Below, in pieces: positions 44,145 through 61,405 of a stretch of 64,000 bases of DNA. The position numbers and the translations under genes are program-made. Source of the DNA: Planctomycetota bacterium (lineage in GTDB: Bacteria; Planctomycetota; GCA-002687715; CAIWVZ01); contig JBGANV010000001.1 of assembly GCA_044222185.1 (NCBI GenBank), forward strand, positions 1,120,001 to 1,184,000, read 5' to 3'. Below the pieces are notes generated by a model. It saw only the letters and a list, made by a program, of their open reading frames with translations. It was not told where the DNA came from and searched no databases. The stretch's first letter is position 1. Each line of letters opens with the position of its first letter.

Positions 44145-44867
44145 TCATTCGGAGTTTCGCGACCGTCCGCCCAGGATGCCCGAGCGGACCAGGAAATAGA
44201 GGAGCTGGAGCACGGCCGTGATCGCTGCCGCCACGTAGGTCATGGCCGCCGCACGGAGCACGGACCTCGCTCCGGCCATCTCGTCGTTCCGAAGGTAGCC
44301 CCCTTCCTCGAGCGTCCAAAGCGCCCTCGCACTCGCATCGAACTCCACGGGAAGCGTGACGAGAGTGAAGAGGAGTGCGCCCGAGAAGAGGATGATGCCG
44401 GACCAGACGGCCAGTGCGCCCACCGACGTCGTCACGCCGCCCAGCACGAGCCCGACCATGATGAGGATCCAACTGAGATTGCTTCCAACGGACGCGACCG
44501 GAACGAGCGCGCTCCGGAACCGGAGTGGGGCATACCCGCGCGCATGCTGAACGGCGTGTCCGACCTCGTGCGCGGCGACTCCGATCGAAGCGATCGACTT
44601 CCCGGAATACACCCCGGACGAGAGCCGCAGGACCTTCTCCCGCGGGTCGTAGTGGTCCGAGAGGAAACCGTCCACGGGCTCGATGCGGACATCCCGAATC
44701 CCGTTCTGCTGGAGGATGCGCGCGGCGACGTCGGCGCCGCTCACGCCCGATCGGGTCCCGACCTGGCTCCATCGAGCGAAGGCAGACTTGACCCACATCG
44801 CCGCGAGTGCGCTGAGGAGAAGGCCGGGCCCGATGAAAATCAGTTGTCGCAGATCGAAAAACGGCAT
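44145..44867 (-). CDS. YugP-like membrane neutral zinc metallopeptidase
   Basis: LSDHYDP, GVAAHEVGHAVQH, VTLPVEFDASARA, VLRAAAMTYVAA. Confidence 0.92.
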   Translation of the reverse strand: MPFFDLRQLIFIGPGLLLSALAAMWVKSAFARWSQVGTRSGVSGADVAARILQQNGIRDVRIEPVDGFLSDHYDPREKVLRLSSGVYSGKSIASIGVAAHEVGHAVQHARGYAPLRFRSALVPVASVGSNLSWILIMVGLVLGGVTTSVGALAVWSGIILFSGALLFTLVTLPVEFDASARALWTLEEGGYLRNDEMAGARSVLRAAAMTYVAAAITAVLQLLYFLVRSGILGGRSRNSE

Positions 44868-45016
44868 GGTGTTCTGCTCCCTGGGTGTTGGCGTGTCGCG
44901 TTCCTTATACGGACTGAGTGGGGCGCGCTCCCCGTGACAAGTTGACAGTGAACGTCTCCATTCCCTGCCGTCGATAGATCCTGATCGAGGCGCGCACGCC
45001 TGTCTGCGCCGGGGAG

Positions 45017-46864
45017 ATGACCTTGGTCGACGCAACCGTTGCTGAACTTCCTCCTCGCGCCAGGACTTCCGAGGGCCCGGTGCACGCGGACGAGGCTCGG
45101 TCATACGCGCAGCAACCGAAGGCGCGAAGGCGTGGTGCCGGCGGCTGGCTTCTCCTCGCCGTGGGCGTCGCCGGCTCCGGCGTCGCCGACGTCGTGCTGA
45201 CTCACCGCGTCCCGCTGTCGCCTGCAGACCTCGCACTCGTGCGCGGCGGGCCGTCGCCCAACGTCGCCGTGGGATGGCTGGCGGGATTGCTCGGATCGGA
45301 CCTCCTCGTCTGGCGACTCTTCGGCGCGATCGGGGTCGTGGCGCTCGCGTGCGCGACGGCGTTCGCGAGCAGCCGGATGGTCGGGACCAGGCGGGCTGCC
45401 GGGTTCGGTGCCGCCGTGGTGCTTCTGCATCCACTCGTGAGGACCTGCGAGCTCGACGTCGACGGCTGTTCGGGGATCTGGGCGACGGCACTCGCGGTCT
45501 TCGGACTCGGACTCGCCCGAGACTGCGTGGCGCGGCGGTGGGTCGGCGCGGCGATCGCGCTCGCGGCCGCCGGTCTCCACTCCGCTGCGAGCGCCCCGTT
45601 CGCCTTGGTGCCGTGGGCACTACTGGGATCCGGAGCTGACGATCGCAGGCAGGCACTGCGCACGCTTCTCGCATGCGCCCTGGGCTGCGCCGGCGCGAGC
45701 GCGGCGTCGATGCTTGCACACGCGACCGCCGCAGGTGAGATCGCAGGCGGTGCAGCCGACACGATGAGGAGCCTCGTGGCGCTCGCGGGACGCGACGGCA
45801 TCGCGGAGCCGTTTCGCTGGGCCACACCGGTCGCGGCGTGGTTCCTGCTTCTTTGCGGCGGGCTCGTTCGGGCCCGCGACGCTCAGTCCGGGCCGGCGGC
45901 GCTCTTCGCCGGCATCGCCGCGGTCGCGACGATCCTGCCTGGAGTCGTCGTTACACGGCGCGGGGTCGCGGATTCCGATCTCGTCGGAGCCGTCACGTGC
46001 CTCGCGATCGCGGCTGGTTCCGCAGGCGTCACGACGACGTGCGCTCGGCGGTGGGCCATGCTCGCGGGCCTGGTCCTGCTCGCGGCCGTTGGGACCTCGA
46101 CCGTCGGCGACTACGCGATGCGCGAACTCCCCGCGCGCGCTGCCGTCGCGAGCTTCGCCGGCCACTGCGACCAGCTCCCGCTCGATCGATGCCAGACGGT
46201 CTGCATCGTCGGAGCGGACGACCCGATGCTGGCGGTGGCGCGCCGCCACGCGGCTGCCGACGGGGCCTTCCGCGCCGTTTCGATCCGGCGACTGGAGGAA
46301 CTCGGCGCAGCGCCCCTCGATGCCGCAGTCGCCGTGCTCCGGTGGGGCGCACCGGCGGACGAGGGGCTGCTCGCGGAGGCGCCGCCGACCCTGCAAACCA
46401 TCGTCGTCGGATCGATCTCCGCAGAGATCGAGCTCGTGTCGCCACCGCCGGACGTCGTGTGGCCTGCGAGGCGCGCCCGCGACGAACCGTCCTTCGAGTT
46501 CAGGTTGCCCTCGGACATGACCCCGACGAGCGCGAACCTCACGTTCGTCGCCGTCTCGGAGCACGCGGGTCGCCCCCACAGCCTCCTGCGGCGCCTGGAC
46601 GCGAGCGTCCTGCGGCGCAGTCGTGACGACGGTCCGCCACGTTGGATCTGGCACCCCACCTGGCGATCGAGCGTGCACGCCGACAACGAACTCCACTGGG
46701 AGGACGGCGACTTCGGCGCCCACACGTCATCGATCCGATGGACGATCGCCGTCTCCGATCGCGAGGCCGATCACGACGATGCGCCCGACGCACACGACGA
46801 CGCGCCGTTCGGAGCCAACGTCCGGCTCGCGCCGTTCCGCACGCTCACCGTCGGGCCGAAATAG
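45017..46864 (+). CDS. Polytopic membrane protein with soluble C-terminal domain (possible GT-C-like)
   Basis: About ten hydrophobic Ala/Leu-rich segments followed by a polar domain; no diagnostic motif; start uncertain. Confidence 0.5.
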   Translation: MTLVDATVAELPPRARTSEGPVHADEARSYAQQPKARRRGAGGWLLLAVGVAGSGVADVVLTHRVPLSPADLALVRGGPSPNVAVGWLAGLLGSDLLVWRLFGAIGVVALACATAFASSRMVGTRRAAGFGAAVVLLHPLVRTCELDVDGCSGIWATALAVFGLGLARDCVARRWVGAAIALAAAGLHSAASAPFALVPWALLGSGADDRRQALRTLLACALGCAGASAASMLAHATAAGEIAGGAADTMRSLVALAGRDGIAEPFRWATPVAAWFLLLCGGLVRARDAQSGPAALFAGIAAVATILPGVVVTRRGVADSDLVGAVTCLAIAAGSAGVTTTCARRWAMLAGLVLLAAVGTSTVGDYAMRELPARAAVASFAGHCDQLPLDRCQTVCIVGADDPMLAVARRHAAADGAFRAVSIRRLEELGAAPLDAAVAVLRWGAPADEGLLAEAPPTLQTIVVGSISAEIELVSPPPDVVWPARRARDEPSFEFRLPSDMTPTSANLTFVAVSEHAGRPHSLLRRLDASVLRRSRDDGPPRWIWHPTWRSSVHADNELHWEDGDFGAHTSSIRWTIAVSDREADHDDAPDAHDDAPFGANVRLAPFRTLTVGPK

Positions 46865-46964: not shown

Positions 46965-47648
46965 ATGACCACACTCCCGAAGTCCGAGACCCGTCCCGAC
47001 GGCCGTCCAGCCATCGACGTCCTGCAACCAACCGAGGTGCAGACCGCCACGTTCGCGTTGGGTTGATTCTGGGGACCCGACTCCCAGTTCGGGAGTCTCG
47101 ACGGTGTGGTGCGCACCCGCGTCGGCTACGCGGGCGGCACGAAGCTCGAACCGACCTACCGAGACCTCGGTGATCACACGGAGACCCTCGAGCTCGACTT
47201 CGACCCCGCGAGAATCTCGTACGAGGCGCTCCTCGACGTGTTCTTCTCGACCCACAACGCCTGCCGCAAGCCGTGGAGCCGCCAGTACGCATCGATCGTG
47301 TTCTGGCGCGGCGAGGCGCAGCGAGCACTCGCGATGGAGGCCGGCCGCGCGATGGAGGCCAGATCAGGCAAGCCCGTCGTCACCGAATTCGTCGAGTTCG
47401 GGAGGTTCTGGCTCGCGGAGGACTACCACCAGAAGTACTCGCTGCGCCGAGTCCCGGAGATCGCGCGCGAATTCACCGACATCTACCCGCGGCTCGAGGA
47501 CTTCGTGAATTCGACCGCCGTGATGCGAGCCAACGCCTGGCTTGGTGGGCACGCCACGCGCGCGCAGGTCGACCGAGACTTGATGGGGCTCGGCCTCTCC
47601 GCCGGCGCGCAGAGGCTGCTTTCGCGGTTGACGCGAAACGGCGGGTAG
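46965..47648 (+). CDS. msrA: Selenocysteine-containing peptide-methionine (S)-S-oxide reductase MsrA (Sec34)
   Basis: GGAG RBS, ATG at 46965, TATFALG-TGA(47064-47066)-FWGPDSQFG..GVVRTRVGYAGG, DHTE, QYAS, FWLAEDYHQKY. The TGA sits at the Cys of GCFWG. Confidence 0.92.
47079..47097 (+). promoter_or_regulatory. Putative bacterial SECIS hairpin
   Basis: GACTCCC-AGTTC-GGGAGTC: perfect 7-bp stem starting 12 nt after the UGA, with G at the second loop position. Confidence 0.8.
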
Positions 47649-47661
47649 GCCCGCGAGAGCG

Positions 47662-48603
47662 CTATTTCCCAACCCAATACAGAGCCGCGGCCGCGATCTG
47701 GAGTTCCATCATCAGCAGGTACATGTTCCGCCAGGCGCGACGGTCGCCTGCGTCGGCGAGATGCGCGGCGTCGCGGATGAGCGAGCGCCCGGTCCACACC
47801 CCGTGGGCGGCGATCAGCACGCCGACGATCGTGCTCGCCGTCGGTGGCAGGCCCAGGAGCGGGCGGTCCGCGACGACGATCCGCGGCAGGGCGATGAGCA
47901 GCAAGCCCGGCAGGCAGAGGAACGGAGCCACGAGCCGCGCCGCCATCGTCGGCCCGAAACGGATCGGAAGCGAGCTCGCTCCGCCCTGCCGATCGCCCTC
48001 GACGTCTGCGAAATCCTTGGTGGGCGCGGCGCCGATCACGAAGCAGAAGAACACGGCGCCGAGGATCCAGGGCTCGCGATCGGAGAAGATCGGGGCCAGC
48101 GTCCCCCATCCGGCCACTTTCAGCAGGAGCCCGCGCGGGATTGCGATCACGAGCGGCCCGAACCACCAGGAGTTCCGGGCGCGCAACGGCGGCGCCGAAT
48201 ACGCCCACGTGAGCCCGGCCGTGAAGGCGACGATCCAACCGACCTCGAACTCGCCCGTCGGCGTCACGAGAAACGCCAGCGCGACGGCCACGGCGTAGAG
48301 CACGAGCGTGCCGACCCGCGCCGCGCGAAGGCTCATGGCACCGCTGGGAATCGGGCGATGCGGCTTGTTGATCCGATCCAGGGCGAGGTCGTGGATCTGG
48401 TTCAATGCGTTGCTCGCTGCATTGAGCGTCGCCGCCATCAGGGCTCCCGCGAGCACGAGCCAGAATGCCCGCGCACCGGTGACCACGGCGCGATGGGCGC
48501 CCAGCGCGGAGAAGGCCCCGGAGATCATCCCGATCGCGGGCGGCAGCAGCGTGAACGGCCGCGTGAGGTCGATCCACGCTCGAACGGCGCCAGGGCGCTT
48601 CAT
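47662..48603 (-). CDS. UbiA-family prenyltransferase with homogentisate-prenyltransferase-type motifs
   Basis: RPFTL, NQIHDLALDRINKPHRPIPSG, AYSAPPLR, IAIPRGLLL, KDFADVEGD; multiple TM helices. Confidence 0.88.
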   Translation of the reverse strand: MKRPGAVRAWIDLTRPFTLLPPAIGMISGAFSALGAHRAVVTGARAFWLVLAGALMAATLNAASNALNQIHDLALDRINKPHRPIPSGAMSLRAARVGTLVLYAVAVALAFLVTPTGEFEVGWIVAFTAGLTWAYSAPPLRARNSWWFGPLVIAIPRGLLLKVAGWGTLAPIFSDREPWILGAVFFCFVIGAAPTKDFADVEGDRQGGASSLPIRFGPTMAARLVAPFLCLPGLLLIALPRIVVADRPLLGLPPTASTIVGVLIAAHGVWTGRSLIRDAAHLADAGDRRAWRNMYLLMMELQIAAAALYWVGK

Positions 48604-49316
48604 GCCGCGCCTCCGGCAACCGTGAGCCAGGCTCCGACGGCCGCAGCGCAACTGCTCGATGCGAAGTTCACGCCCTCGTTGTTCAAAACGCCTCGTCGCT
48701 CGAGGGTCGCGCCGATGAGGCTGTCGACGAGAGAGCCCGCGAGCCCGCCGACGACGATCGCCCACCGGAATACGCCGTCCGTCGCCGCGACGGCAGTCGC
48801 CGTGATCGCACCACCGACCAGGGAGAAGAATACTCCCGCCCACGTCATGCCGCCGTCGGTTCCGCGAATGACCATGGGGCCGAAGAGCAGAAGCCGCGGG
48901 GTCTCCCGCGCCAGCATCCCCCACTCCCCGGCGACCGTGTCCGCGAGCGATCCGGCGAGTGCTGCAGCCGCTGCGGGAATGGTCCAGACCGACCACTCGG
49001 GGCGAGCGGCGCCCAAGATCAACACGATGGCCGCGGCGCCCGCATTGGCGACGACGTGCCGGGCCGAGCGCCGCCCGCCGGCCTCCTGCGCCACACCCAG
49101 CCGGGCCTTGCGGGCGATGCCGGTCCGTGAAGCGCCGGTTCCGACGACGACGAGGCTCAGGAACGCCGCGATCACCGACGCGCCGCCTTCCCACGCAAAC
49201 CAAAGCGCGTGGACGAATCCTGCGAAGATGCCCGAGCGCGTTCCGGCCCGGATCAGGACGACCGGGACGGTGAGCGCCGTCGCCGTGACGATCGCGGTTG
49301 CAAGTTCGTGGCGCAC
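48600..49316 (-). CDS. DUF92/TMEM19 family membrane protein (VTE6 phytyl-phosphate kinase-like)
   Basis: RSARHVVANAG, LADTVAGEWG, GTDGGMT, GSLVDSLIGATLE, LNNEGVNF. Confidence 0.88.
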   Translation of the reverse strand: MRHELATAIVTATALTVPVVLIRAGTRSGIFAGFVHALWFAWEGGASVIAAFLSLVVVGTGASRTGIARKARLGVAQEAGGRRSARHVVANAGAAAIVLILGAARPEWSVWTIPAAAAALAGSLADTVAGEWGMLARETPRLLLFGPMVIRGTDGGMTWAGVFFSLVGGAITATAVAATDGVFRWAIVVGGLAGSLVDSLIGATLERRGVLNNEGVNFASSSCAAAVGAWLTVAGGAA

Positions 49317-49317
49317 G

Positions 49318-49857
49318 TCAGGGGCTCGCAATCCAGGCGGCCACCGCCGCGGACACGGGCCACGCGACGTTGTCTTCGATCGGCCTCGGAAGCCCATCGG
49401 CGACGGCGCCGGCGCATCCCGCGGCGATCGCGATGGGCCACGGCGCGACGATGGCGCACGCCAGCGCTGCGGCACCCCCCGCGAGCACGCTCACGAGCAC
49501 GCGTTTCTCGCGCCGCCACGGCCAGCACGGACCTCGAACCGCCAATCCGAGGAATGGGGCGACTCCGTCACCGACTCCGAGCGATAGCCAGCCGATCTGC
49601 GCGATGACCGGCCGGTCGTGAAAGACCACGAGCAGCGCGGCGCACGCGAGCGGGTACGCCCAGATGGCGCGCGTGCCCGTCCCGTCCGGTCGGATGACGT
49701 TCCGCAGCCCGGGCAGCCTGGGAAGGAGCCACGCGTTCGCCGGGATCGCGATCAGCGCGAGGGCCAAGGCTGCATCCACACCGATCACCGGGACGAGATA
49801 GGCCCCGAGTCCGATCAGAATGTGAACCGCGCGCCGGAGAAGCTCGTTGCGGGTCAT
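49318..49857 (-). CDS. Phytol/dolichol kinase-like membrane protein (VTE5/SEC59/DGK1 family), short and divergent
   Basis: ELLRRAVHILIG, LGVGDGVAPFLG, WRREK, IEDNVAWP; 179 aa. Confidence 0.7.
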   Translation of the reverse strand: MTRNELLRRAVHILIGLGAYLVPVIGVDAALALALIAIPANAWLLPRLPGLRNVIRPDGTGTRAIWAYPLACAALLVVFHDRPVIAQIGWLSLGVGDGVAPFLGLAVRGPCWPWRREKRVLVSVLAGGAAALACAIVAPWPIAIAAGCAGAVADGLPRPIEDNVAWPVSAAVAAWIASP

Positions 49858-49858
49858 G

Positions 49859-51985
49859 TCACTTCTTGAACTGGATCGGCTTCCCGTCGAGTCCGGGCGT
49901 GGCCGCGAGCCCGAGCAGCGCCTCCACCGTCGGGTGGATGTCCGCCACGTCCGCGACGGACTGCGACGGCGGAAGCGACGAGAAGAGCACGCCGGGGACC
50001 ACGTCCGGATCGACGGAGCAGTGATCACCGCTCCAGAGACTTCGATTGGGCTGGAACACCGGCTCGTCCATCGCGCCGAGCGTGCACTGCCACGAGACAC
50101 GGAAGCCAGACTCGAACCCGAGCACCAGATCCGCGGATTCGTTCACGCGATCACCGGAGTAGATCTCCTCCCGCGGTTTCACCGACCTCACGACGGGCTG
50201 CCCCTCGTGGCGAAGCCCGAGGAGCCGCTTGCGAATCTCCTCCACGAGCGCGCCGCGCTCGGTCGGTTGCACCGCGCCGTTGGGCTCCCGTCCCGCGAGG
50301 TTGACGTAGATCTTGCCGAGCCCCATGGAGTAGGCCTTCGTCTTCGTCCAGTCGACGCCGGGGAACAGCGACGTACCGCCGATGGAACGTTCGACAGTCC
50401 GCGTCTCGCCATCGGCCGTGCCGACCAGCAGGCCCTCCTCGGCGAGCCACCGGTTGAGGTTGACCGAGACACGGAACGGCGCGAAGCCGTGATCGGAGAC
50501 GACGAACAGGATGTCGCCGCCACGGAGGAATTCCTTGCGGACACGGCCGACCAGGCGGTCGAGGCGCACGTAGGCGTCGAGGATCGGGTTCCCACGTCGT
50601 GCGACCGCGGCCGGATCGTGGCGCGGATGTGCGGGGTCGAGGTCCCTCCAGAAGAGGTGCTGGGCGCGGTCCGGGGTCGACAGCACGCAGAAGAAGCACC
50701 GCCAATCGGTGCGTGCGAGCGTGCGCGCCACCATCTGCTCGCGGCGCGCGTCCAGTTCCTCGACGTCGGAGAGGAACGTGGCCTCGTCGATGACCTCGTC
50801 CTGCAGCGGATTCGTGGCACAAGCCCAGCCGAGCGTGTCGAAGGGCCCGTCGGCGCAGAGGTCCGAGCCGAAGTCGAGCGGCGCGGTGATCGGCGCGAAC
50901 GGTGATTGCTCGACCGGGTCGAAGCACGTGGGCTCCTGGTAGAGGACCGTCCGCGCACCGCCTTCGAGCAAGCGGAATCGCGTGAGTCCGTGGAGAGACG
51001 TACCCGGGGCCACTCCGAACGTCACGGGCATGAACGGCGTCCAGCGCGACTCCGCCACCTCCTCCAGAGCCTGTCCCACGCCGACCGTGACGCGGCGCTC
51101 CTCGCGCGACGCGCGCGCCGTCACGTTCACGCTGATGCGAGTCTTCGTGAACGGAGAGATCGGCCCCTGCACCGAGATGTCGCCGAGGGTGCCATCGGGA
51201 CGCACGGCGATCGGCAGGACGCGACAACCAGTCGGAGTGATGCGGCGCTCGGGCGGAACGGGCTCCTCGCGATAGACGGTCACCGTCCCCGGCGTCCCCA
51301 TCATGTCCGGAACGCCCAGTCCGCAGAGGATTCGCCCGTGCTTGAGCTCGGGCGCGGGAAACGCCATCGGCGCGAGCAACGACGCCGAACCAACCCCGTC
51401 GCGATCGAGACGCTCCCAGATCGCCTCGCCGCCGCGTGCGTTGATCGGCACGATCATGTCGTCGGGGATCGAGGCGACGACGGCGCCCGCCGCAGCACCG
51501 ACGGACATCACGGTCGCGCAGGCCATCAGCAATCCGGATCGCGCACCGCGACGACGCCACATCCTGACGGCCATGCCCGCGCCGGCGGCAGCGAGCGCGC
51601 CCACCACCCACCAGGCGATACGCCTCGGAAACAGGTGTCTGGGCTCGACCAGTGCCAGCTCGGCCGTGACGTCGTTCCCCTTGAATCCTCGACGGAGGAA
51701 GTCGAAGACGCCGGTGCGACCCGGATTGCGTCCGGTCGTGAGCGTGGCCCAGGAGACCGGAGACTGTGCCGGGTTGGTGGGGCGCAGGGGAATCAACCCG
51801 CCTGATGCGGCGAGGTCCGCGAGCGCCGGCAAGCGCCCCTCGGCGATCCAGCGGGACGTGAGCGCGAAGTCGAGCCCGTCCACGCCGATGACGACGACCC
51901 GAGCCTGAGACTGCGCCACCGCGGTCGCATGAAACGACGACGCCGCCAGCGCGACCAGGGCGAGTCGGAGCAGATCACTCCTCAT
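49859..51985 (-). CDS. Alkaline phosphatase superfamily (nucleotide pyrophosphatase/phosphodiesterase-type) exported protein
   Basis: Signal peptide, VVIGVDGLD, PAQSPVSWATLTTGRNPG, PDRAQHLFW, VVSDHGF, WSGDH. Confidence 0.88.
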   Translation of the reverse strand: MRSDLLRLALVALAASSFHATAVAQSQARVVVIGVDGLDFALTSRWIAEGRLPALADLAASGGLIPLRPTNPAQSPVSWATLTTGRNPGRTGVFDFLRRGFKGNDVTAELALVEPRHLFPRRIAWWVVGALAAAGAGMAVRMWRRRGARSGLLMACATVMSVGAAAGAVVASIPDDMIVPINARGGEAIWERLDRDGVGSASLLAPMAFPAPELKHGRILCGLGVPDMMGTPGTVTVYREEPVPPERRITPTGCRVLPIAVRPDGTLGDISVQGPISPFTKTRISVNVTARASREERRVTVGVGQALEEVAESRWTPFMPVTFGVAPGTSLHGLTRFRLLEGGARTVLYQEPTCFDPVEQSPFAPITAPLDFGSDLCADGPFDTLGWACATNPLQDEVIDEATFLSDVEELDARREQMVARTLARTDWRCFFCVLSTPDRAQHLFWRDLDPAHPRHDPAAVARRGNPILDAYVRLDRLVGRVRKEFLRGGDILFVVSDHGFAPFRVSVNLNRWLAEEGLLVGTADGETRTVERSIGGTSLFPGVDWTKTKAYSMGLGKIYVNLAGREPNGAVQPTERGALVEEIRKRLLGLRHEGQPVVRSVKPREEIYSGDRVNESADLVLGFESGFRVSWQCTLGAMDEPVFQPNRSLWSGDHCSVDPDVVPGVLFSSLPPSQSVADVADIHPTVEALLGLAATPGLDGKPIQFKK

Positions 51986-51995
51986 CGAATTCGAT

Positions 51996-53351
51996 TCACT
52001 TCCCGCCACGGATCTCGCGGACGTAGATGTTGCCGAACTGAATCGGCGCACCGTGGTGCTGCAGGGCGATGGGACCCGATGCGGGTACGCCCGGCAGCTG
52101 CGCGTCCTCGATCACGCGCTCTCCGTTGAGCGTCACGGTCAAGCGATCACCGACCATGCGGATCCGGAAGCGGTTCCACTGACCGATGGGTGCGTCAGCC
52201 TTCTTCTTCGGGGTGACGCCCGCTCGCACCGCCGGCGAACTCGCGGGATCGGTTCGATACCCATACACCTCGCCGGATCCGATCGGCCAGCACCAGATGT
52301 TCACTTGCGACTTGTCGTTGCCGCGCAGGTAGATCCCACTGTCACCCGCCTCCTGGACCTTCACGGTCTTGGGTTTGCCATCGTCGCCCTTGGGTGACGT
52401 GCCGTCCGGCAGAACCACCGGAACTTCCTTCTCCTCCGGCTTCCCCGTCCAACGCCAGTCCACGATCAATTCCACGTCGCCGAACGACTCCTCGCTCCAA
52501 AGGTGGTCGCCCTTCCCGTCGTAGTTCAGGGTCCAGTCGTCGACGGTCCAATGCGCCTTCTGCTTGTCGTCGGCCTTCCATCCCGTCAGATCCACGCCGT
52601 TGAACAGGGTGCGAAAGCCTTCATCCGTCAGCGCGACCTGCTCCGCGGCGAGCGCGCCCGATGACGGAAGCTCGGTGATCACGAGGTTCTTGAAGTCGAT
52701 GGGCGAACCCTCGGACTCGAGGCAGATGTAGCCCTTCCGCGGGTTGATGTCGTAGCCACCGCTGACTTCCTTGCCGTTGACCTCGAGCTTGAGCGTGCCG
52801 TTCTTCGCGACGATCCGGTAGTGATTCCATTCTCCGGCGCCCTTCGTCCGCGATTCGCTGGGCAGGCAGCGCTCCCAGCCGCCTGGATGGGGCCGATCGG
52901 GCTTCATGTGCGCGCCATGGATCGAGAACACGTCGCCCTGGCTCGTGTAGTTGGGGGTCTCGTGACCGAGCATCACCTGCACCTCGATCGATCGGGTGAA
53001 TGGCTGACCGCGGGCGGTGATCGGGTCCGACCAGATGAAGATCCCCGCATTGCCGCCAGCATCGTGGTGCATCCAGTCGACTTCCAGGATGAAGTTTTCG
53101 AACTGGCGATCCGTGCAAAGAACGCCCGTCGGGTGACCCGAGCAGTGGATCATCCCGTCTTTCACGGTCCATGTACTCGGCGCTCCGTTCACGTTCTTCC
53201 AACCGGTCAGGTCCTTGCCGTTGAAGAGCGGTACCGGTTTGGACGACTCCGTGGGCGGCGTCTGCGCGCATGCAGGGTCGGGCAGGAGCGCTGCCAGCGC
53301 AACCAGGCTGAAGGCCACGATCCACGACGGGTTCGAAGTGATGGTTCCCAC
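51996..53351 (-). CDS. Secreted tandem DUF1080 (3-keto-disaccharide hydrolase family) protein
   Basis: Two LFNG.DLTGW domains with NAG/DSGI, EVQ, GEWN/GQWN and G.I.L motifs; signal peptide; AGGAG RBS. Confidence 0.9.
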   Translation of the reverse strand: MGTITSNPSWIVAFSLVALAALLPDPACAQTPPTESSKPVPLFNGKDLTGWKNVNGAPSTWTVKDGMIHCSGHPTGVLCTDRQFENFILEVDWMHHDAGGNAGIFIWSDPITARGQPFTRSIEVQVMLGHETPNYTSQGDVFSIHGAHMKPDRPHPGGWERCLPSESRTKGAGEWNHYRIVAKNGTLKLEVNGKEVSGGYDINPRKGYICLESEGSPIDFKNLVITELPSSGALAAEQVALTDEGFRTLFNGVDLTGWKADDKQKAHWTVDDWTLNYDGKGDHLWSEESFGDVELIVDWRWTGKPEEKEVPVVLPDGTSPKGDDGKPKTVKVQEAGDSGIYLRGNDKSQVNIWCWPIGSGEVYGYRTDPASSPAVRAGVTPKKKADAPIGQWNRFRIRMVGDRLTVTLNGERVIEDAQLPGVPASGPIALQHHGAPIQFGNIYVREIRGGK

Positions 53352-53470: not shown

Positions 53471-55729
53471 TCAAACGCCCCGGCGCATCCGCTGGTCGAA
53501 CCATTCGTACCGGCCCTCGCGCTTCCATCGCACGGACTTCGCTCCGAGATACTGGGCGAGGTTCTGTGTGAAGGCATACAGCGGCGTCTTGAGGGTCCAC
53601 CACAAGCGGTAGGCGACACTGCGGTCGTCACGCCAGACTACGGGCAGGAGGTGGCACAGCGCCTTCACGGAAAAGAGCGGAACCATCCACCATCTTGGAA
53701 TCGTGTGGAGTCCCACGAGGTCGTGGATGTTCTGATGGTCGAGGTAGACCCGGCGGAACTCGTAGAGCACGGGACTGTTGTGCGAGTGGATGACGACGGA
53801 TCCCGGATCGTTCACGAGACGCCAGCCACCAAGGATCGCCTGCCGCCCCCATGCGATGTCCTCGCCGAACTGTCGCTTCTCGAACGGGATCGTCTCCATG
53901 GTCGACTTGCGGACGCATGAGGCCACGTCGTCGAACGCGATCAGCCGGTAGCGCTCGAACGGATGCATGCGATCCCACGCAGCGCGGTCGGCGAGGTGTT
54001 TCACTTCGGGGGCGCCCGACTCCTTGGTCCAACCCTTCAGGCGATCGCGTTGGAACGGGTTGCAGTCCGGTCGGGGCAACTGGTGGCAATACGCTCCGGC
54101 TACGCGGGGATCGTCGAAGTTGCCGACGAGCCTCTCCAACCAGTTCTCGTCGATCGGCTCCGCATCCTGGGTCAGCAACGCGACGATCTCACCGTGGGCC
54201 TCGCGAACCGCTCGGTTGCGAGTGAGACCGTGGTTGAACTCGGAGTTCGGAATCTGGATCAACCGGACGGAGGGGCGCTTCTGCACCATCTCCACGGTCC
54301 CGTCCTTCGAGCCCGAGTCGATGACCAACACCTCGTAGTCGAACGAGGTCTTCTGGGCGAGAATCCTGTCGAGCACGGTTTCGAACAGTGGACCGCCGTT
54401 CCAAGTCGGCACGAACACGGTTGCGTAGGGCCGGCCAGATCCCTTGCGTTTGCGCGCCGCGGCCGCCGGATCGACGGGGGCGCGCGAGCCGACTCCGGAC
54501 CTCACCCGCGAGTAATGCTCGGCCGTCTCGCGAGCGCAGTCCGCCATGGCGCGTACCGGCGGGATCGAGGCCACCAGCTGGCGGTACTTCTCCGGATCGT
54601 CCACGAGGTCGGCGAGCACTGATCGGAGCTGCTCGGGGTCGCCGGGCCGGACGAACACCCCGCCCCGCCCCGGCTCGAACGCCTCGCGCATCCCGCCCAT
54701 CTCCGTTGCGATCACCGGGACGCCGGCCAGTTGGGCCTCCCGGATCGTGAGGCAGAACGACTCCCACCAGAGCGAGGGGACCACGAGCAGGTCGATCTCG
54801 CGAAGGATCTCCGGAACCGTCGCGGGCTCGTACCCGCCAGCGAACCGGACGTCCAGCCAGGGGTGCGCGAGGTCCCGCAGCCGTCCTTCAAACCCCGAGT
54901 CACCGTGAAAGTTCGGGGCGTCCCCGTGGATGGTGAGCCGGACCTCCTTTCGCGCCAGGCGATTGAACGCCTCGACGAGGATGTGGGTCCCCTTCGACGG
55001 GATGACGGAGCCGATGAAGCCGATCGTCCGCACGAATTCGCGGGGCCGCCGAGCGCGCTCGAACCCCCGGCTCGACAGTCCGTGAGGGACCGTGACCATG
55101 CGGTCGGCGTCCAGACCGAACTCCGCCATGCGCTGCCCGTGTGCTCGTGATGGCGAGATCAGCAGATCGCACCGCAGGAGCCGGGCGCGAAGCTCTGGGT
55201 CCAACGCTCGCAGCCCTTCGCCCGTGATGTCGAAGTGGGGCCAGAGTTCCTTCAGGCAACGGGCACAGCGGTCACGATCGAGTTCGACGCACACCTCCAG
55301 GTCCTTCCGAATTCGCTGGCCACGCGGGCAGACCATCCAGAAGTCGTGGAGCGTCATGACGAGCTTCGCTCCGCGCTCCGCGACGCGATCGAGGATGCCG
55401 GTCGAGAGGCATGTGAGATGGTGGACGTGAACGAGGTCGGGCTTCCACGCATCGATCGTTTCGCAGAACGCCGCCTCGATCCTCTCGTTGCGGTGGATCC
55501 AGCGGAAGCTCGCGGCATCCTGGAAGTTGTAGTTCAGCGCGACGACCGGGATGCCATCCACCGCGTAGCGGCGCACGTCGTAGTCGGGCCTGGCCACGTC
55601 GCCTTCGCGGCAGAAAACCAGGACCTCGTGACCGAGGTCCATCAGGCCACGCGCCAGGTCCCGCGCATGAAGCTCCGTGCCGCCACGACTCTGGGGCACG
55701 AAGCCCGCCGCCACGAAGAGGATCCGCAT
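53471..55729 (-). CDS. Bifunctional glycosyltransferase, GT4 plus GT2 (rhamnosyltransferase-like)
   Basis: GGTE, TLHDFWMVCPR, VPSLWWESF (GT4); PTWNGG, IDSGSKDGT, FNHGLTRN, LTQDA, FGED (GT2). Confidence 0.92.
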   Translation of the reverse strand: MRILFVAAGFVPQSRGGTELHARDLARGLMDLGHEVLVFCREGDVARPDYDVRRYAVDGIPVVALNYNFQDAASFRWIHRNERIEAAFCETIDAWKPDLVHVHHLTCLSTGILDRVAERGAKLVMTLHDFWMVCPRGQRIRKDLEVCVELDRDRCARCLKELWPHFDITGEGLRALDPELRARLLRCDLLISPSRAHGQRMAEFGLDADRMVTVPHGLSSRGFERARRPREFVRTIGFIGSVIPSKGTHILVEAFNRLARKEVRLTIHGDAPNFHGDSGFEGRLRDLAHPWLDVRFAGGYEPATVPEILREIDLLVVPSLWWESFCLTIREAQLAGVPVIATEMGGMREAFEPGRGGVFVRPGDPEQLRSVLADLVDDPEKYRQLVASIPPVRAMADCARETAEHYSRVRSGVGSRAPVDPAAAARKRKGSGRPYATVFVPTWNGGPLFETVLDRILAQKTSFDYEVLVIDSGSKDGTVEMVQKRPSVRLIQIPNSEFNHGLTRNRAVREAHGEIVALLTQDAEPIDENWLERLVGNFDDPRVAGAYCHQLPRPDCNPFQRDRLKGWTKESGAPEVKHLADRAAWDRMHPFERYRLIAFDDVASCVRKSTMETIPFEKRQFGEDIAWGRQAILGGWRLVNDPGSVVIHSHNSPVLYEFRRVYLDHQNIHDLVGLHTIPRWWMVPLFSVKALCHLLPVVWRDDRSVAYRLWWTLKTPLYAFTQNLAQYLGAKSVRWKREGRYEWFDQRMRRGV

Positions 55730-55735
55730 GCTCGA

Positions 55736-58700
55736 TCACCGTCGCCGGCCGCGCGCGGCCGATTCCAGAAGTCGCCGATAGTGCCCCTCGGTCGATACGG
55801 CGTCCTCGCGGATGTCGCGGATCGACGAGCGGAGCGGCCTGAGGCGGTCGCACAGCCCCCGGTCCGTCACGAAACGCATGAGCTTCCGCGCGAGGTCGGC
55901 CGCATCGCCCATCTTGAACCGGAAACCGTCCACACCGTCCTGGACCATCTCGGCCATCCCACCCTCATCCGAAGTCACCACCGGCACCTCGGCCATGAAC
56001 GCCTCGTGGATCGTGAGCGGAGAGTTCTCCCACCACAGGCTGGGAACCACGAGCACGTCGATCTCCGCAAGAAGGTTCGCCACGTCCTTGTTGTCGTAAC
56101 GCCCGAGCAGGCTGATGCGCGGGTTCGTGATCCGCGACCGCAGTTCGGCGACGTATTGCGGGAAGATCTCCAGCGCTCCGTGAATTCGTCCTTCCACGGG
56201 AAACGCCGCGAGCGAGTTGAGCGCATCGACGAGGACGTTCAGCCCCTTGTACTCGGCGATCGTGCCCAGGTATCCGATGCGCAACAGCTCGGACGGCACC
56301 TTGGAACCGCCGCCGAATCGGCTGAGATCCTGCCCATATCGCCAGTGCACGATCTTCTCGACTGGCACTGCTTTCGATCGCAAGAAGACGTCGCGGAGGA
56401 ACACGCTCGGTGCGAAGAAGAAGTCCACGTTCCGAAGGGCGTCGAAGATCACCCGGATCCGCTCGACGATCGCCGCTTCCCGTCGTTCGGGTGAGGCACG
56501 CCCTGAACCGACCCGCGCCGAGCGACGCTCGACGCGGACACCGATCGACTTCATGCCCTTGGGCAGAAACCGCGTCATGGCACGGCCTGCGGCCCGACCG
56601 ATGCGGGCCACGAGCCCGGCCTCCATCACTCGGTGTTCGATGCAGTCGGCACAGCGCGCGGGCACGGGCTCGAGGCATCGCTCGTCGTCCGGTCGGCGCA
56701 TGATGCCGTCGCGAGCGCAGACGAGCATGTACTCGTGCAGCGTGCACACGACGGGAATCCCCCGGCGCTTCGCTCGGTCGATGATTCCAACCCCGAAGAA
56801 CTTCGTGTGCTGGAGGTGGACGACGTCGGGCCGGATACGCTCGAGCAGCGAGTCGAAGACCATCTCCATCCCCGAGTCCACGTAGGTCGACTCGAACGTC
56901 GCGAAGGCGTCGTGGTGGACGATTTCCGTGAACGGCAACCCGTCGAAGACCCCGTCGCGCGTCTCGTACTGCGGCCGGTCGGGACGGTTCTCGCAGAAGA
57001 CGAGGTGCACGTCGTTCCGTGTCTGTAGCGCCCGTGAAAGCTGGTAGGTGTATATCTCCGATCCCGCCGCGTGATACGGGAGGAAGTCGTGGATGACCAT
57101 CAGCACGCGAAGGCGATGCGGCAAGGCGTCGAGTCGGGCGACGAGCGCCTGGATCGACGTGCCCTTGCTTCCGGGTCGCGCGGAGGACCGCAGTGCGTCC
57201 AGGATCCGCTGGCGCTGCGCCACGTGGTCACGGAGCGCTGCCAGCCGGACACCCACGTCGCCGTCTGGCTCGCCCTCGGCGACGCCGAGCAGGCGTTCGA
57301 TCTCCCCGACCCGATCTGCTGCCGTCGCCGCGCCGCCATCCAGGTCGTCGACGCGTCGCCGCAGCTCGGCTTCGACACCGCGAAGTCGATCCATGGCCGC
57401 CGACGCCGTCTCGCACTCGAGTCGGAGATCCGCCGCCGAACGTTCCGCGCGAAACGCCCGCGCCCGCCACGAAGTGACCTCGCGAGCCTCGTCCGCCAGC
57501 GACACGGCGAGTCCCGCGGCCCGGCGCACGGCCTCGTCGCGAGCCCGGCGGTCGTCGGCCGCATCGGCTGCGACGCGCACCATCTCGAGTTCGGCGGTCC
57601 GCAGTTCGCGGGTCGCATCACGCCACCGTGCTTCGAACTCCGCAGCGAGTGCCGAGGCGTCGGCGGCGGCTCGACGCGCCGCATCGAGAGCGCGCTCGTG
57701 CTCGCCGATCGACGATTCGTAGCCGGAGATCGTCGAATCCCAGGCGGTGCGGGCCGCTTGATGATCCCGGTCGCGAGCTTCGGCCTCCTCACGAAGCCGC
57801 TGGAGCTCGGTTTCGAAGCGACCGATCGACTCCTGAAAGCCGGCGACGACGCCGTCCTTGGCGACCGAGGCGCTCTCGAGTTCCCGGATCCGCGCCTCAT
57901 CGGCTTCGATGCGTTCCTTGTGCAATTGAAGCGAGCGGAGGAGGTCGGCTACGTGTGCATGCAGCTCATGCGTCGAGCGCACGAACGCTTCGATCGCTGC
58001 ATCCTTGTCGGCCAGGGTGCGGCGGTACTCGCCGATGGAGGTCTCGAACGCCGCGACCACGGTGGCGCGTTGCTGGGCCTGCTCGCGGTGTTCCGCGAGC
58101 GACTTCTCGAAGTCGCCGATCACGGCTTCACGAGTCACGGCCTGGGCACGATGTTGCGCGAGCGACGCCTCGAACTCGGCGAGAACGAGGTCCTTCGCCG
58201 CGAGTTGCTCCCGATATTCCACGATCGACGCCTCGAAGCGAGACAGGTCGTCGTCCTTGCGGGCGACCTCCGCCGTGAGCGTCGCCACGGATTCGGAGGC
58301 GCCGTCGAACGCGCGTCGCAGGTCGTCCCATCGGATGCGCTCGCCGTCGAGTTCACCGCGAGCCTGGACGAGGTCGGTCGTGCGGATGTCGAGTCGTGCG
58401 GCGAGCCGCGCGGCCGATGACGTGGTTCGCGACCAGGGCACGACCCGCGGCCCTGCCGCCACCGCACGCTCGTAGATCTCACCGAGCCGCGTCGCGTGTT
58501 CGGACATGGGCGTGAGCGCAGGGATCGATGCCTTCCACGCATCGAGGCGCGAGGGGTCGGCCAGGACCTCCGAGATCCGGCTCGCGAGGCTCGACGCCGA
58601 CTCCGGCGCGAACGTGGCACCAGCCCCATGCAGGCGTTCCGCGAGCGCACCGCGGTCGGGAACGATGGCGGGCACACCCAGGCGGAATGCCTCATCGAGC

Positions 58701-59707
58701 ACGAACGAATACGACTCGGGAGCGATGGACGGGATGACGGCGACGTCGAAGCGGCGCCGGCCGATGTCCTCTGGACGAAAGCCGCCGGTGAATTCCACGG
58801 GAAGCCCAGCGGCGAGTTCCCGGATCCGCGCGTCGTAGGCCGGATCCGCCGCCGCGCCGAGACACCGGACCGACAGACGGCGGCGGTCGCGCTCGGGCAG
58901 CATCCGGAGGGCCTCGATGAGGATGTGAAGCCCTTTGAACGGAGCGAAATGGCCCCAGTGTGCCAGTCGCAGTACGGACGCCCGAGCCTCGCCTGCGTCG
59001 ACAGCCCAGGCAGGAGCGTGCCGCTCGAGGGTTCCGTGGGGAAGGACCGTGAAGCGCCGGAGCGGCATCTGCAGTTTGTCGGCGAGAATGAGCCGGTGCG
59101 ACACGCTGGGCACGATCACGGACTGAGCTCCCTCGATCTCGCTCCGCATGTCCGAGGCGAATGCCGAAATCTCGTCCGCCGCCTCGCCGTCCGACATCCA
59201 ATCGGGCCGTGGAACACAACGCAGGCAAGAGTCCACGGAGAGGTTCCGCATGCAGAGCGCCTCGTCCCTGACCCGAAACGCGCGTGGGCAGGATGCCATC
59301 ACGTCGTGCAGCGTCACGACGACGGGGATCCCCGCAGCGTTCGTCACAGCCACGAGGTCCCGCGTCAGCCGGATCCAGTGGTGGATGTGAACGACGTCCG
59401 GGCGAATCTCCCTGAGGGCCTCGCCGAACAGACGCGACGCCCGCGGGTCGTACGATTTGTGCCAGCTGTCGACGTACGCCCCGGTGCGGTGAAGACGCCG
59501 AATCGGGATCCCCTCGACGTCATCGGGCACGACCTCGGGCACGTCCTTCGATTGGAGGGATCCTGTGAAGACGTGGACGTCATCGCCTGCGGCGCGGAGC
59601 GCGAGAGCTGCCTCCAAGACGTAGTGCTCGGTGCCGCCCCGGCACTCGGGAACGAAACCGTGAACGACCTGGAGAACCTTGCGCGGCTCCGACTTTCGCA
59701 ACGTCAT
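55736..59707 (-). CDS. Glycosyltransferase with two GT4 domains joined by a long coiled coil
   Basis: N-terminal GT4 (GGTE, TLHD..ASCPR, PSIAPESY), about 430-aa heptad-rich linker, C-terminal GT4 (AGSE, TLHEY, PSLWWENSP). Confidence 0.9.
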   Translation of the reverse strand: MTLRKSEPRKVLQVVHGFVPECRGGTEHYVLEAALALRAAGDDVHVFTGSLQSKDVPEVVPDDVEGIPIRRLHRTGAYVDSWHKSYDPRASRLFGEALREIRPDVVHIHHWIRLTRDLVAVTNAAGIPVVVTLHDVMASCPRAFRVRDEALCMRNLSVDSCLRCVPRPDWMSDGEAADEISAFASDMRSEIEGAQSVIVPSVSHRLILADKLQMPLRRFTVLPHGTLERHAPAWAVDAGEARASVLRLAHWGHFAPFKGLHILIEALRMLPERDRRRLSVRCLGAAADPAYDARIRELAAGLPVEFTGGFRPEDIGRRRFDVAVIPSIAPESYSFVLDEAFRLGVPAIVPDRGALAERLHGAGATFAPESASSLASRISEVLADPSRLDAWKASIPALTPMSEHATRLGEIYERAVAAGPRVVPWSRTTSSAARLAARLDIRTTDLVQARGELDGERIRWDDLRRAFDGASESVATLTAEVARKDDDLSRFEASIVEYREQLAAKDLVLAEFEASLAQHRAQAVTREAVIGDFEKSLAEHREQAQQRATVVAAFETSIGEYRRTLADKDAAIEAFVRSTHELHAHVADLLRSLQLHKERIEADEARIRELESASVAKDGVVAGFQESIGRFETELQRLREEAEARDRDHQAARTAWDSTISGYESSIGEHERALDAARRAAADASALAAEFEARWRDATRELRTAELEMVRVAADAADDRRARDEAVRRAAGLAVSLADEAREVTSWRARAFRAERSAADLRLECETASAAMDRLRGVEAELRRRVDDLDGGAATAADRVGEIERLLGVAEGEPDGDVGVRLAALRDHVAQRQRILDALRSSARPGSKGTSIQALVARLDALPHRLRVLMVIHDFLPYHAAGSEIYTYQLSRALQTRNDVHLVFCENRPDRPQYETRDGVFDGLPFTEIVHHDAFATFESTYVDSGMEMVFDSLLERIRPDVVHLQHTKFFGVGIIDRAKRRGIPVVCTLHEYMLVCARDGIMRRPDDERCLEPVPARCADCIEHRVMEAGLVARIGRAAGRAMTRFLPKGMKSIGVRVERRSARVGSGRASPERREAAIVERIRVIFDALRNVDFFFAPSVFLRDVFLRSKAVPVEKIVHWRYGQDLSRFGGGSKVPSELLRIGYLGTIAEYKGLNVLVDALNSLAAFPVEGRIHGALEIFPQYVAELRSRITNPRISLLGRYDNKDVANLLAEIDVLVVPSLWWENSPLTIHEAFMAEVPVVTSDEGGMAEMVQDGVDGFRFKMGDAADLARKLMRFVTDRGLCDRLRPLRSSIRDIREDAVSTEGHYRRLLESAARGRRR
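57944..58258 (-). repeat. Five tandem 63-nt/21-aa repeats in the coiled coil
   Basis: KDDDLSRFEASIVEYREQLAA / KDLVLAEFEASLAQHRAQAVT / REAVIGDFEKSLAEHREQAQQ / RATVVAAFETSIGEYRRTLAD / KDAAIEAFVRSTHELHAHVAD. Confidence 0.8.
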
Positions 59708-59743
59708 CCTCGACGGAATCGGTGACGCCCGGTTCCGTCGAGG
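59708..59743 (-). promoter_or_regulatory. Strong hairpin abutting the start codon of the GT4-CC-GT4 gene
   Basis: Perfect 11-bp inverted repeat CCTCGACGGAA...TTCCGTCGAGG. Confidence 0.5.
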
Positions 59744-59848
59744 GTCCGACGGATTACCGAGCCGTGCCGGCTCCGCACCATGGGTGCGGAGGATACCCAA
59801 CGAGAGCCTTCGCCTGAACGTCGGGCGCGAAAACCGGACGGGCTACGG

Positions 59849-61390: not shown

Positions 61391-61405
61391 GCGCGAGCGT
61401 CAGCC

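Follow-up and report, generated by a model that had tools for sequence, protein, structure and literature searches.

What does a membrane operon that resembles the phytol salvage pathway of plants and cyanobacteria do in a bacterium that appears to be non-phototrophic? The question is raised by a 64,000-nucleotide stretch of a Planctomycetota genome (assembly GCA_044222185.1, contig JBGANV010000001.1, positions 1,120,001 to 1,184,000; hereafter the window), in which genes for a dolichol/phytol-kinase-like protein, a DUF92 protein and a UbiA-superfamily prenyltransferase follow one another on the minus strand. An earlier note on this DNA had described the three genes as a prenol-activating and prenylating system, with a lean towards a homogentisate prenyltransferase and a tocopherol- or chromanol-like product. 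Our comparison of sequences, models and gene contexts makes it somewhat probable that the operon, which comprises four genes, returns a free isoprenoid alcohol to an activated form and joins its prenyl group to an acceptor, giving an uncharacterised membrane lipid; a vitamin E pathway finds no support. The genes and motifs concerned, with window coordinates, are as follows.

49859..52051, minus strand: NPP-type phosphodiesterase/pyrophosphatase (P0004, 730 amino acids; GTG start at 52051; PF01663)
49318..49857, minus strand: short dolichol/phytol-kinase-like membrane protein (P0001, 179 amino acids; ATG start; putative CTP-dependent prenol kinase)
48600..49316, minus strand: DUF92/COG1836 membrane protein (P0002, 238 amino acids; GTG start; VTE6 homologue, putative prenyl-phosphate kinase)
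47662..48603, minus strand: UbiA-superfamily prenyltransferase of an unnamed clade (P0003, 313 amino acids; PF01040)
48376..48402, minus strand: first Asp-rich motif of the UbiA protein, NQIHDLALD, read from sequence and translation
47992..48018, minus strand: second Asp-rich motif of the UbiA protein, KDFADVEGD, read from sequence and translation

The phosphodiesterase, kinase-like, DUF92 and UbiA genes are one translationally coupled set, with no space for separate regulation. The TGA of the phosphodiesterase gene is followed by one nucleotide and then by the ATG of the kinase-like gene (tgaCATG), the TGA of the kinase-like gene stands one nucleotide before the GTG of the DUF92 gene, and the DUF92 TGA overlaps the UbiA ATG as ATGA. 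The UbiA stop codon is only 13 nt from the stop of a convergent msrA gene, which places the end of the operon at the UbiA gene. The three coupled membrane genes described earlier at 47662-49857 are thus confirmed, as both the 1-nt gap and the ATGA overlap can be read in the sequence. The coordinates given for the two Asp-rich motifs are likewise correct and the IAIPRGLLL segment is present in the UbiA protein. What had been overlooked was the extent of the operon, because a fourth coupled gene, the phosphodiesterase at 49859-52051, lies directly upstream of the trio.

Conservation and fusion of the four genes

The grouping of DUF92, kinase-like and UbiA genes is beyond chance and is a genuine functional unit across phyla. 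In a scan of named genomes, the UbiA protein had at least 561 relatives, and synteny was counted at the loci of the best 80 among them. Those loci are mostly from Acidobacteriota, with others from Planctomycetota, Gemmatimonadales, Fischerbacteria, Omnitrophota, Eisenbacteria and Glassbacteria. A DUF92 gene stands directly upstream of the UbiA gene on the same strand at 66 of the 80. The DUF92 and kinase-like domains share one open reading frame (ORF) at 49 of these 66, the kinase is a separate ORF at 7, and 10 are without a kinase match, some of them cut by contig ends. The remaining loci have DUF92 further upstream (3), a kinase only (1), a phosphodiesterase only (2) or nothing upstream (6), or are too short (2).

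Single-protein fusions join the same partners. A search for longer UbiA relatives found a 785-amino acid protein (P0292) that unites kinase, DUF92 and UbiA domains, three proteins (P0290, P0295 and P0297) in which DUF92, with or without the kinase, is fused to UbiA, and two (P0291, 970 amino acids; P0296, 915 amino acids) in which UbiA is followed by the phosphodiesterase domain with its membrane hairpin absent. In a further fusion (P0142), the phosphodiesterase precedes a kinase-like domain. Because of these kinase/DUF92/UbiA/phosphodiesterase fusions, a shared pathway is much the likeliest reading. The synteny and the fusions together bear out the earlier view of the trio as a unit.

Two metagenomic proteins of 649 amino acids (P0293 and P0294) carry a fatty-acid-desaturase/hydroxylase domain (PF00487), with the His boxes HDVVHR, HLDHHTH and HHLEHH, N-terminal to a UbiA domain of the same clade. 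Such a fusion may mean that some lineages oxidise or desaturate either the prenyl chain or the acceptor.

Co-occurrence was examined in 41 genomes, comprising 40 related genomes and the source genome. Matches were found to UbiA in 26, to DUF92 in 26 (25 over the cut-off), to the kinase-like protein in 23 and to the phosphodiesterase in 27. UbiA and DUF92 occur together in 24 of the 41, with UbiA alone in G007 and G022 and DUF92 alone in G008 and, as a weak match, G035. UbiA and the phosphodiesterase occur together in 25 of the 41; G002 has only the former, and G008 and G026 only the latter. Within the taxonomic order, the phosphodiesterase, kinase and DUF92 genes are contiguous, and the UbiA gene either adjoins them or lies 1.5-3 kb off behind an unrelated gene on the opposite strand. 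Such an intervening gene, seen in L035, G010 and G014, was considered as a pathway member and rejected on account of its strand and lack of relationship. In Planctomycetota, the phosphodiesterase co-occurs with, adjoins or is fused to UbiA.

Our literature search found no paper on the kinase-like/DUF92/UbiA cluster; Seaver 2014 and vom Dorp 2015 may already describe clustering of COG1836 with UbiA. The closest precedent for the two-domain fusion comes from archaea, where Makarova et al. 2015 (PMC5898192) report fusions of a Sec59-like N-terminal domain (COG0170) to COG1836 (arCOG02245) and predict for them a kinase step in isoprenoid metabolism. This is the same fusion as at 49 of our 80 loci and in many database proteins. 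The conserved context in archaea is uppS, which encodes a cis-prenyltransferase, whereas the constant partner here is UbiA and the two domains are separate genes in the window.

Family assignments of the four proteins

The UbiA protein matches PF01040 at 103.6 bits (gathering cut-off 34.2), and the residues of both Asp-rich motifs, N68, Q69, D72 and D76 in the first and K196, D197, D200, G203 and D204 in the second, are invariant among 16 family members. All of its NCBIfam scores are under cut-off: 122.8 bits against 313 for the ChlG model NF005742, 119.7 against 212.3 for the BchG model TIGR01476, 99.8 against 269 for PRK12884, 82.1 against 226 for the HPT/VTE2 model NF009525, 81.3 against 296 for the model of digeranylgeranylglyceryl phosphate synthase (DGGGPS; NF009521) and 23 bits for the decaprenyl-phosphoribose (DPPR) synthase model. 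The protein therefore lies outside every curated subfamily. Among solved structures, the family profile is closest to chlorophyll a synthase (9sas, 1.9e-30) and then to an archaeal DGGGPS (6m31, 3.4e-26). A search of the ESM Atlas with the UbiA protein returned only unnamed UbiA clusters.

The separation from these nearest characterised relatives is seen in genome-wide scores as well. Across 301 genomes from the phylum of a Gemmatimonadales carrier, the BchG model found true BchG in 14 genomes at 290-348 bits and scored members of our family at 60-91 bits. None of the proteins in 201 genomes reached the DGGGPS cut-off; a DGGGPS-like group scored about 110-173 bits, and a separate paralogue of this kind coexists with our family in three genomes (G047, G050 and G065). 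Conversely, a profile of our family scores its own members at 343-485 bits, BchG at 80-104 and the DGGGPS-like proteins at 40-78. Coleman et al. 2019 describe many bacterial DGGGPS homologues of unclear function (PMC6431249).

A quick maximum-likelihood tree was built from 64 rows, none of which was dropped: 34 from our family, 14 BchG, 12 bacterial DGGGPS-like and the 4 paralogues of the source genome. It covers these groups and has no rows for HPT/HST, cyanobacterial ChlG or archaeal DGGGPS. Our 34 rows form a clade with a Shimodaira-Hasegawa-like approximate likelihood ratio (SH-aLRT) support of 97, apart from the BchG clade (SH-aLRT 100). The branching order of our family, BchG and the DGGGPS-like rows is not settled, and the EboC-like paralogue intrudes among the last. 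The family has the Asp-rich motifs and an RPxPSG motif in common with ChlG/BchG and DGGGPS; it differs from them by its sub-cut-off scores, its place apart from the 14 true BchG and 12 bacterial DGGGPS-like sequences, and a PRGxLLKVAGW segment of its own. The UbiA protein of the window is a member of a distinct, large and unnamed clade in the ChlG/DGGGPS/HPT part of the superfamily. One member (P0289, 675 amino acids, labelled as a Galbitalea sp. metagenome-assembled genome) carries a 375-amino acid C-terminal extension that matches no family model.

The gene content of the source genome (7.08 Mb, 93.8% complete) bears on what this enzyme may prenylate. Five UbiA genes are present, including the one in the operon. 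The other four are a heme O synthase (253 bits, cut-off 210), an MqnP/UbiA-like enzyme (264, cut-off 181), a second, weak MqnP-like protein and an EboC-like protein (142, cut-off 250). The ordinary UbiA roles are already filled by paralogues, with the heme O synthase and the MqnP-like enzyme encoded elsewhere in the genome. Hydroxyphenylpyruvate dioxygenase (HPPD) had a best match in the genome of 28.1 bits, where 277 is the cut-off. No match was found to tocopherol cyclase (PF14249), to PcrB/geranylgeranylglyceryl phosphate (GGGP) synthase (PF01884) or to the type-II reaction centre (PF00124). The BchH model matched at 534 bits against 829, a hit that is probably CobN, and the best geranylgeranyl reductase-like protein scored 91 bits against 158.8. 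The host had been described as apparently non-phototrophic, which agrees with the lack of PF00124 and of BchH above cut-off.

With HPPD, tocopherol cyclase, GGGP synthase, the type-II reaction centre and BchH not above cut-off, the tocopherol reading is unsupported. The NQxxDxxxD, INKP and KDxxDxEGD motifs of the UbiA protein presumably resemble those of HPT, and the HPT model does give a score of 82 bits, which would suit a homogentisate prenyltransferase of the HPT/HST kind, with a tocochromanol or plastoquinone-like antioxidant as its product, the reading towards which the earlier note had leaned. That score falls far below its cut-off and below those for ChlG and BchG, and neither an HPPD above cut-off nor a cyclase, as expected of a tocochromanol or chromanol producer, was found in the source genome; we regard this assignment as very improbable. 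An ester-forming, ChlG-like enzyme would instead join the prenyl group to a carboxylate, on scavenged (bacterio)chlorophyllide, another tetrapyrrole or another acid. Chlorophyll synthases are indeed the best NCBIfam and Protein Data Bank (PDB) matches, but the BchG score is well under both its cut-off and the range of true BchG, the family is set apart from the BchG clade in the tree, and the source genome offers neither a reaction centre nor BchH above cut-off. We judge such an activity improbable.

The DUF92 protein is the more readily placed of the two candidate kinases. It matches PF01940 at 123 bits (gathering cut-off 27.5) and TIGR00297 at 89.4 bits, the latter below the hypothetical-equivalog cut-off of 205.85, and it is a homologue of plant VTE6 and thus a putative prenyl-phosphate kinase. 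According to PMC9782597, VTE6 was predicted by comparative genomics of COG1836 (Seaver 2014), VTE5 and VTE6 provide the precedent for paired prenol and prenyl-phosphate kinases, and such genes are established in plants and cyanobacteria only.

For the kinase-like protein, a word-based search returned 16 other homologues, 10 of which bear the JGI label "dolichol kinase", and a profile of these found 2093 relatives at E<=0.001 among 1.84 billion representative proteins, many fused to DUF92. Among 34 relatives that were scanned, 14 have a C-terminal DUF92 domain (13 above cut-off), 3 an N-terminal PAP2 phosphatase, 1 a Phosphodiest domain and 2 a weak PF01148 match. The consensus of 78 single-domain members reads GDGxA...KSxxGS...ESLPxxxDDNLxVP, with D97 and N163 the same in every member and K118 and D162 in nearly all. 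The GD..A, K(S)..G(S) and (D/E)DN..P elements of this core are what we take to be the phytol/dolichol-kinase (VTE5/DolK) motifs. The window protein retains all four residues; PF01148 is matched by 6 of the 78 relatives, albeit not by the window protein. The three PAP2-containing proteins (P0191, P0195 and P0230) place the phosphatase N-terminal to the kinase-like domain. Such a phosphatase-kinase pair in one protein would be in keeping with the removal and restoration of phosphate on a prenyl lipid across the membrane.

The AlphaFold2 (AF2) model of the kinase-like protein is confident (pLDDT 97). Foldseek returned nothing at E<=0.001 with this model, and a PDB sequence search with the family profile gave chance matches only. 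An exhaustive aligner run over 48,161 chains placed the CDP-diacylglycerol synthase CdsA first (4q2e, Z 7.6 over 154 residues), with the CDP-archaeol synthase CarS at Z 5.5, values that are weak for helical bundles. By hhalign, the kinase-like core aligns with the DUF92 core (77% probability, E 2e-5), in agreement with the placement of COG1836 in the cytidylyltransferase superfamily by Makarova et al. 2015 (PMC5898192). The retained D97, K118, D162 and N163, the PF01148 matches of the relatives, the top rank of CdsA, the hhalign link and that study together are the grounds for the kinase assignment, and we infer from them that the module would have kinase activity.

A different chemistry is also conceivable, namely an archaeal-style activation in which UbiA would make a prenyl glycerol(-phosphate) ether, one of the two CTP-transferase-superfamily proteins would phosphorylate a lipid alcohol, the other would form a CDP-lipid in the manner of CarS or CdsA, and the phosphodiesterase would remodel the head group. 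The only structural matches of the kinase-like model that have a related function are CdsA and CarS, DUF92 belongs to the CTP-transferase superfamily by hhalign and according to PMC5898192, the archaeal DGGGPS is the second-best solved relative of the UbiA protein, and an NPP-type lipid phosphodiesterase would suit head-group chemistry. However, no GGGP synthase was found in the source genome, which also tells against the glycerol-ether product that had been offered as an alternative to a quinone or chromanol, the DGGGPS score is 81 bits against 296, and three genomes of the Gemmatimonadota sample hold our family beside a separate DGGGPS-like paralogue. Moreover, VTE6, the sole DUF92 protein tested, is a kinase according to PMC9782597. 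We consider an archaeal-style activation unlikely.

The phosphodiesterase matches PF01663 (Phosphodiest) at 99.6 bits against a cut-off of 23, and an ATG at 51985 is a likelier start than the GTG at 52051. Its AF2 model (pLDDT 89) has helices at 20-48, 142-168 and 170-193, corresponding to an N-terminal membrane helix and a two-helix membrane hairpin (142-193) within the catalytic domain, together with a beta-rich insert. The top Foldseek matches are Xanthomonas NPP (7n1s, 2.4e-11), ENPP1, SPAP and the lipid-active ENPP6 and autotaxin. The metal and nucleophile motifs of the alkaline-phosphatase superfamily (DG.D, SPVSW..TG, PDRxQH, SDHG and WSGDHCS) are kept in 14 homologues. The protein thus has the fold and the bimetal and nucleophile motifs in common with Xanthomonas NPP, ENPP1, ENPP6 and autotaxin; unlike these, it has an extra membrane hairpin and a beta-rich insert, and its gene shares an operon, or is fused, with that of a UbiA prenyltransferase. 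The N-terminus looks signal-like by a crude hydropathy script, and in the fusions the domain comes after the final helix of UbiA; both suggest a catalytic domain exposed to the periplasm. The UbiA-phosphodiesterase fusion suggests a reaction at the outside of the membrane, a step of which we found no description.

Neighbouring genes

Upstream of the phosphodiesterase, the window holds a glycosyltransferase (GT) gene that has counterparts at other loci of the phylum.

53471..55729, minus strand: GT4+GT2 bifunctional glycosyltransferase (752 amino acids; Pfam), an upstream neighbour of the phosphodiesterase kept in Planctomycetota

The phosphodiesterase is preceded by a GT4+GT2 gene in L028, L030, L031, L033, L034 and G007, with this arrangement also in L118, and the window protein is 57% identical over 752 amino acids to the product of the gene directly upstream of the L033 phosphodiesterase. 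In the window, a gene with tandem 3-keto-disaccharide-hydrolase domains (51996-53351) stands between the two. The GT4+GT2 enzyme is at most a possible member of the pathway. Further upstream on the same strand (55736-63972, minus) is a cluster encoding a GT4 enzyme (396 amino acids), a radical SAM/SPASM protein (459 amino acids), a 513-amino acid protein without a family match and a 1354-amino acid double GT4.

Other neighbours differ by lineage. Planctomycetota loci have the GT4+GT2 gene and a sigma factor; Acidobacteriota loci have LptD-like, rmlA/B/C-like and Rv2578c-type radical SAM genes, which probably reflect inherited synteny. An HpnA-like short-chain dehydrogenase/reductase (SDR) is found at 15 of the 80 loci, 10 times immediately upstream; it follows UbiA in L029, L030 and L033 and precedes the kinase in L055 and others, and the sole such gene of the source genome lies far off, on contig C14. 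Genes for a short-chain, FPPS/GGPPS-like synthase sit within the cluster in L074 and L104, and polyprenyl-phosphate-sugar-type GT2 genes follow UbiA in L049 and L050. No acceptor-making enzyme was identified among the lineage-specific neighbours of the surveyed loci.

These sugar-related genes raise the possibility of a glycan-carrier system, in which the kinase-like protein would make a polyprenyl-phosphate carrier as dolichol kinase does, UbiA would add a phospho-sugar as DPPR synthase does for the adjacent glycosyltransferases, and the phosphodiesterase would recycle the carrier outside. In the mycobacterial decaprenyl-phosphoribose pathway, a UbiA-type DPPR synthase acts with a PAP2 phosphatase and an SDR epimerase. 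The present operon is similar in that UbiA is coupled to a phospho-ester hydrolase and has SDR and glycosyltransferase neighbours; it differs in that the hydrolase is NPP-type rather than PAP2, kinases are present and the DPPR-synthase model gives only 23 bits. The GT4+GT2 gene and the long upstream glycosyltransferase cluster of the window, the GT2 genes of L049 and L050, the rml and sugar SDR genes upstream in Acidobacteriota and the PAP2-kinase fusions would all fit such a carrier. It would nevertheless leave DUF92, the most constant partner, without a role, and the synthases embedded in the clusters are of the short-chain trans type, not cis-prenyl. The sugar genes also vary by phylum and may therefore be inherited synteny. 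We give a glycan-carrier function a low probability.

On the other side of the operon, the convergent msrA gene (46965-47648, plus strand) has an in-frame TGA (47064-47066) at the position of the catalytic Cys of GCFWG, and would read ...ATFALGUFWGPDS... if selenocysteine were inserted. A 7-bp hairpin begins 15 nt past the UGA, with a fold z-score of only -0.07, and the source genome has a tRNA-SeC (C1:1632625-1632719); a selenocysteine MsrA is plausible from the sequence. Among the best 80 loci, msrA is not a conserved neighbour, and nothing was found that ties it functionally to the operon. Between msrA and a Zn_peptidase_2 gene (44145-44900) lies a 615-amino acid frame (45017-46864, plus strand) whose N-terminal half is hydrophobic and which has no Pfam or NCBIfam match.

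The proposed pathway

By analogy with VTE5 and VTE6, the trio is most simply read as converting a prenol to a prenyl phosphate, then to a prenyl diphosphate, followed by prenyl transfer, which would place the VTE5/VTE6 logic in non-phototrophs. The salvage pathway of plants and cyanobacteria, in which VTE5 and VTE6 supply VTE2/HPT, MenA or ChlG, uses the same three superfamilies in the same logical order. The two systems have in common a clear DUF92 domain and, in a form with a degenerate KSxxGS, the GD...K...DN core of the kinase-like protein. They differ in that neither photosynthesis genes nor genes for HPPD or the cyclase were found in our host, curated cut-offs place the transferase outside HPT, ChlG and MenA, the genes share an operon or a single frame, and an NPP-type phosphodiesterase is added in Planctomycetota.

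In the proposed mechanism, the kinase-like protein, of the dolichol/phytol-kinase branch of the CTP-transferase superfamily, would use CTP at the cytoplasmic face to phosphorylate a short prenol in its free form (farnesol, geranylgeraniol or phytol are the probable ones). Phytol of algal origin, as proposed earlier, would be a guess, and so would a functional tie to msrA. The VTE6-like DUF92 protein would add the second phosphate to give a short prenyl diphosphate, probably C15-C20. A short-chain donor is favoured because FPPS/GGPPS-like genes occur inside the L074 and L104 clusters and because the nearest characterised UbiA relatives, of the ChlG/DGGGPS type, use C20 donors. The UbiA enzyme, through its two Asp-rich Mg2+ sites, would then O- or C-prenylate an acceptor that in the source organism is presumably not homogentisate, GGGP or chlorophyllide, and the product would be a membrane or envelope lipid. 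Finally, the hairpin-anchored NPP-type enzyme, facing the periplasm, would cleave a phosphodiester or pyrophosphate on this lipid, either maturing the product or freeing the prenol for the kinases to recycle.

Several observations weigh against this salvage pathway. Neither Pfam nor NCBIfam yields a match to the kinase-like protein, even at E<=10, and the KSxxGS motif of this protein is degenerate, with the Ser and Gly gone and EKRVLVS in their place, as had been cautioned for this short, 179-amino acid protein. The Z of 7.6 to CdsA falls in a range deemed non-specific for helical bundles. The 80 loci, mostly from one phylum, are interrelated and do not count as independent samples. In L031, L104 and G007 the phosphodiesterase and UbiA genes stand together but lack a nearby kinase or DUF92 gene, and G007 gave no DUF92 match anywhere, so the transferase is not always dependent on the kinases. 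The polyprenyl synthase genes in two clusters favour a donor made de novo over a salvaged one, and the frequent sugar-nucleotide and glycosyltransferase neighbours fit a glycan carrier equally. The role of the phosphodiesterase is conjecture.

A bolder version is conceivable, though less probable than not: the module would make an undescribed bacterial isoprenoid (C15-C20) ether- or ester-linked membrane lipid, maybe glycosylated and trimmed outside by the NPP-type enzyme, and this lipid would occur widely among Acidobacteriota, Planctomycetota, Gemmatimonadota and several candidate phyla.

In thousands of non-phototroph proteins, a putative pair of prenol and prenyl-phosphate kinases is linked through operons and fusions with an orphan UbiA clade. 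The identity of the product would assign a function to a large unnamed prenyltransferase family and would probe whether ordinary heterotrophic bacteria salvage prenols. A new bacterial isoprenoid lipid, should it exist, would bear on the "lipid divide" and on the interpretation of biomarkers, in that part of the short-chain isoprenoid lipid signal of soils and sediments now credited to archaea or chlorophyll could be bacterial. The carriers of this operon would then have a dedicated loop for recycling prenols across the membrane.

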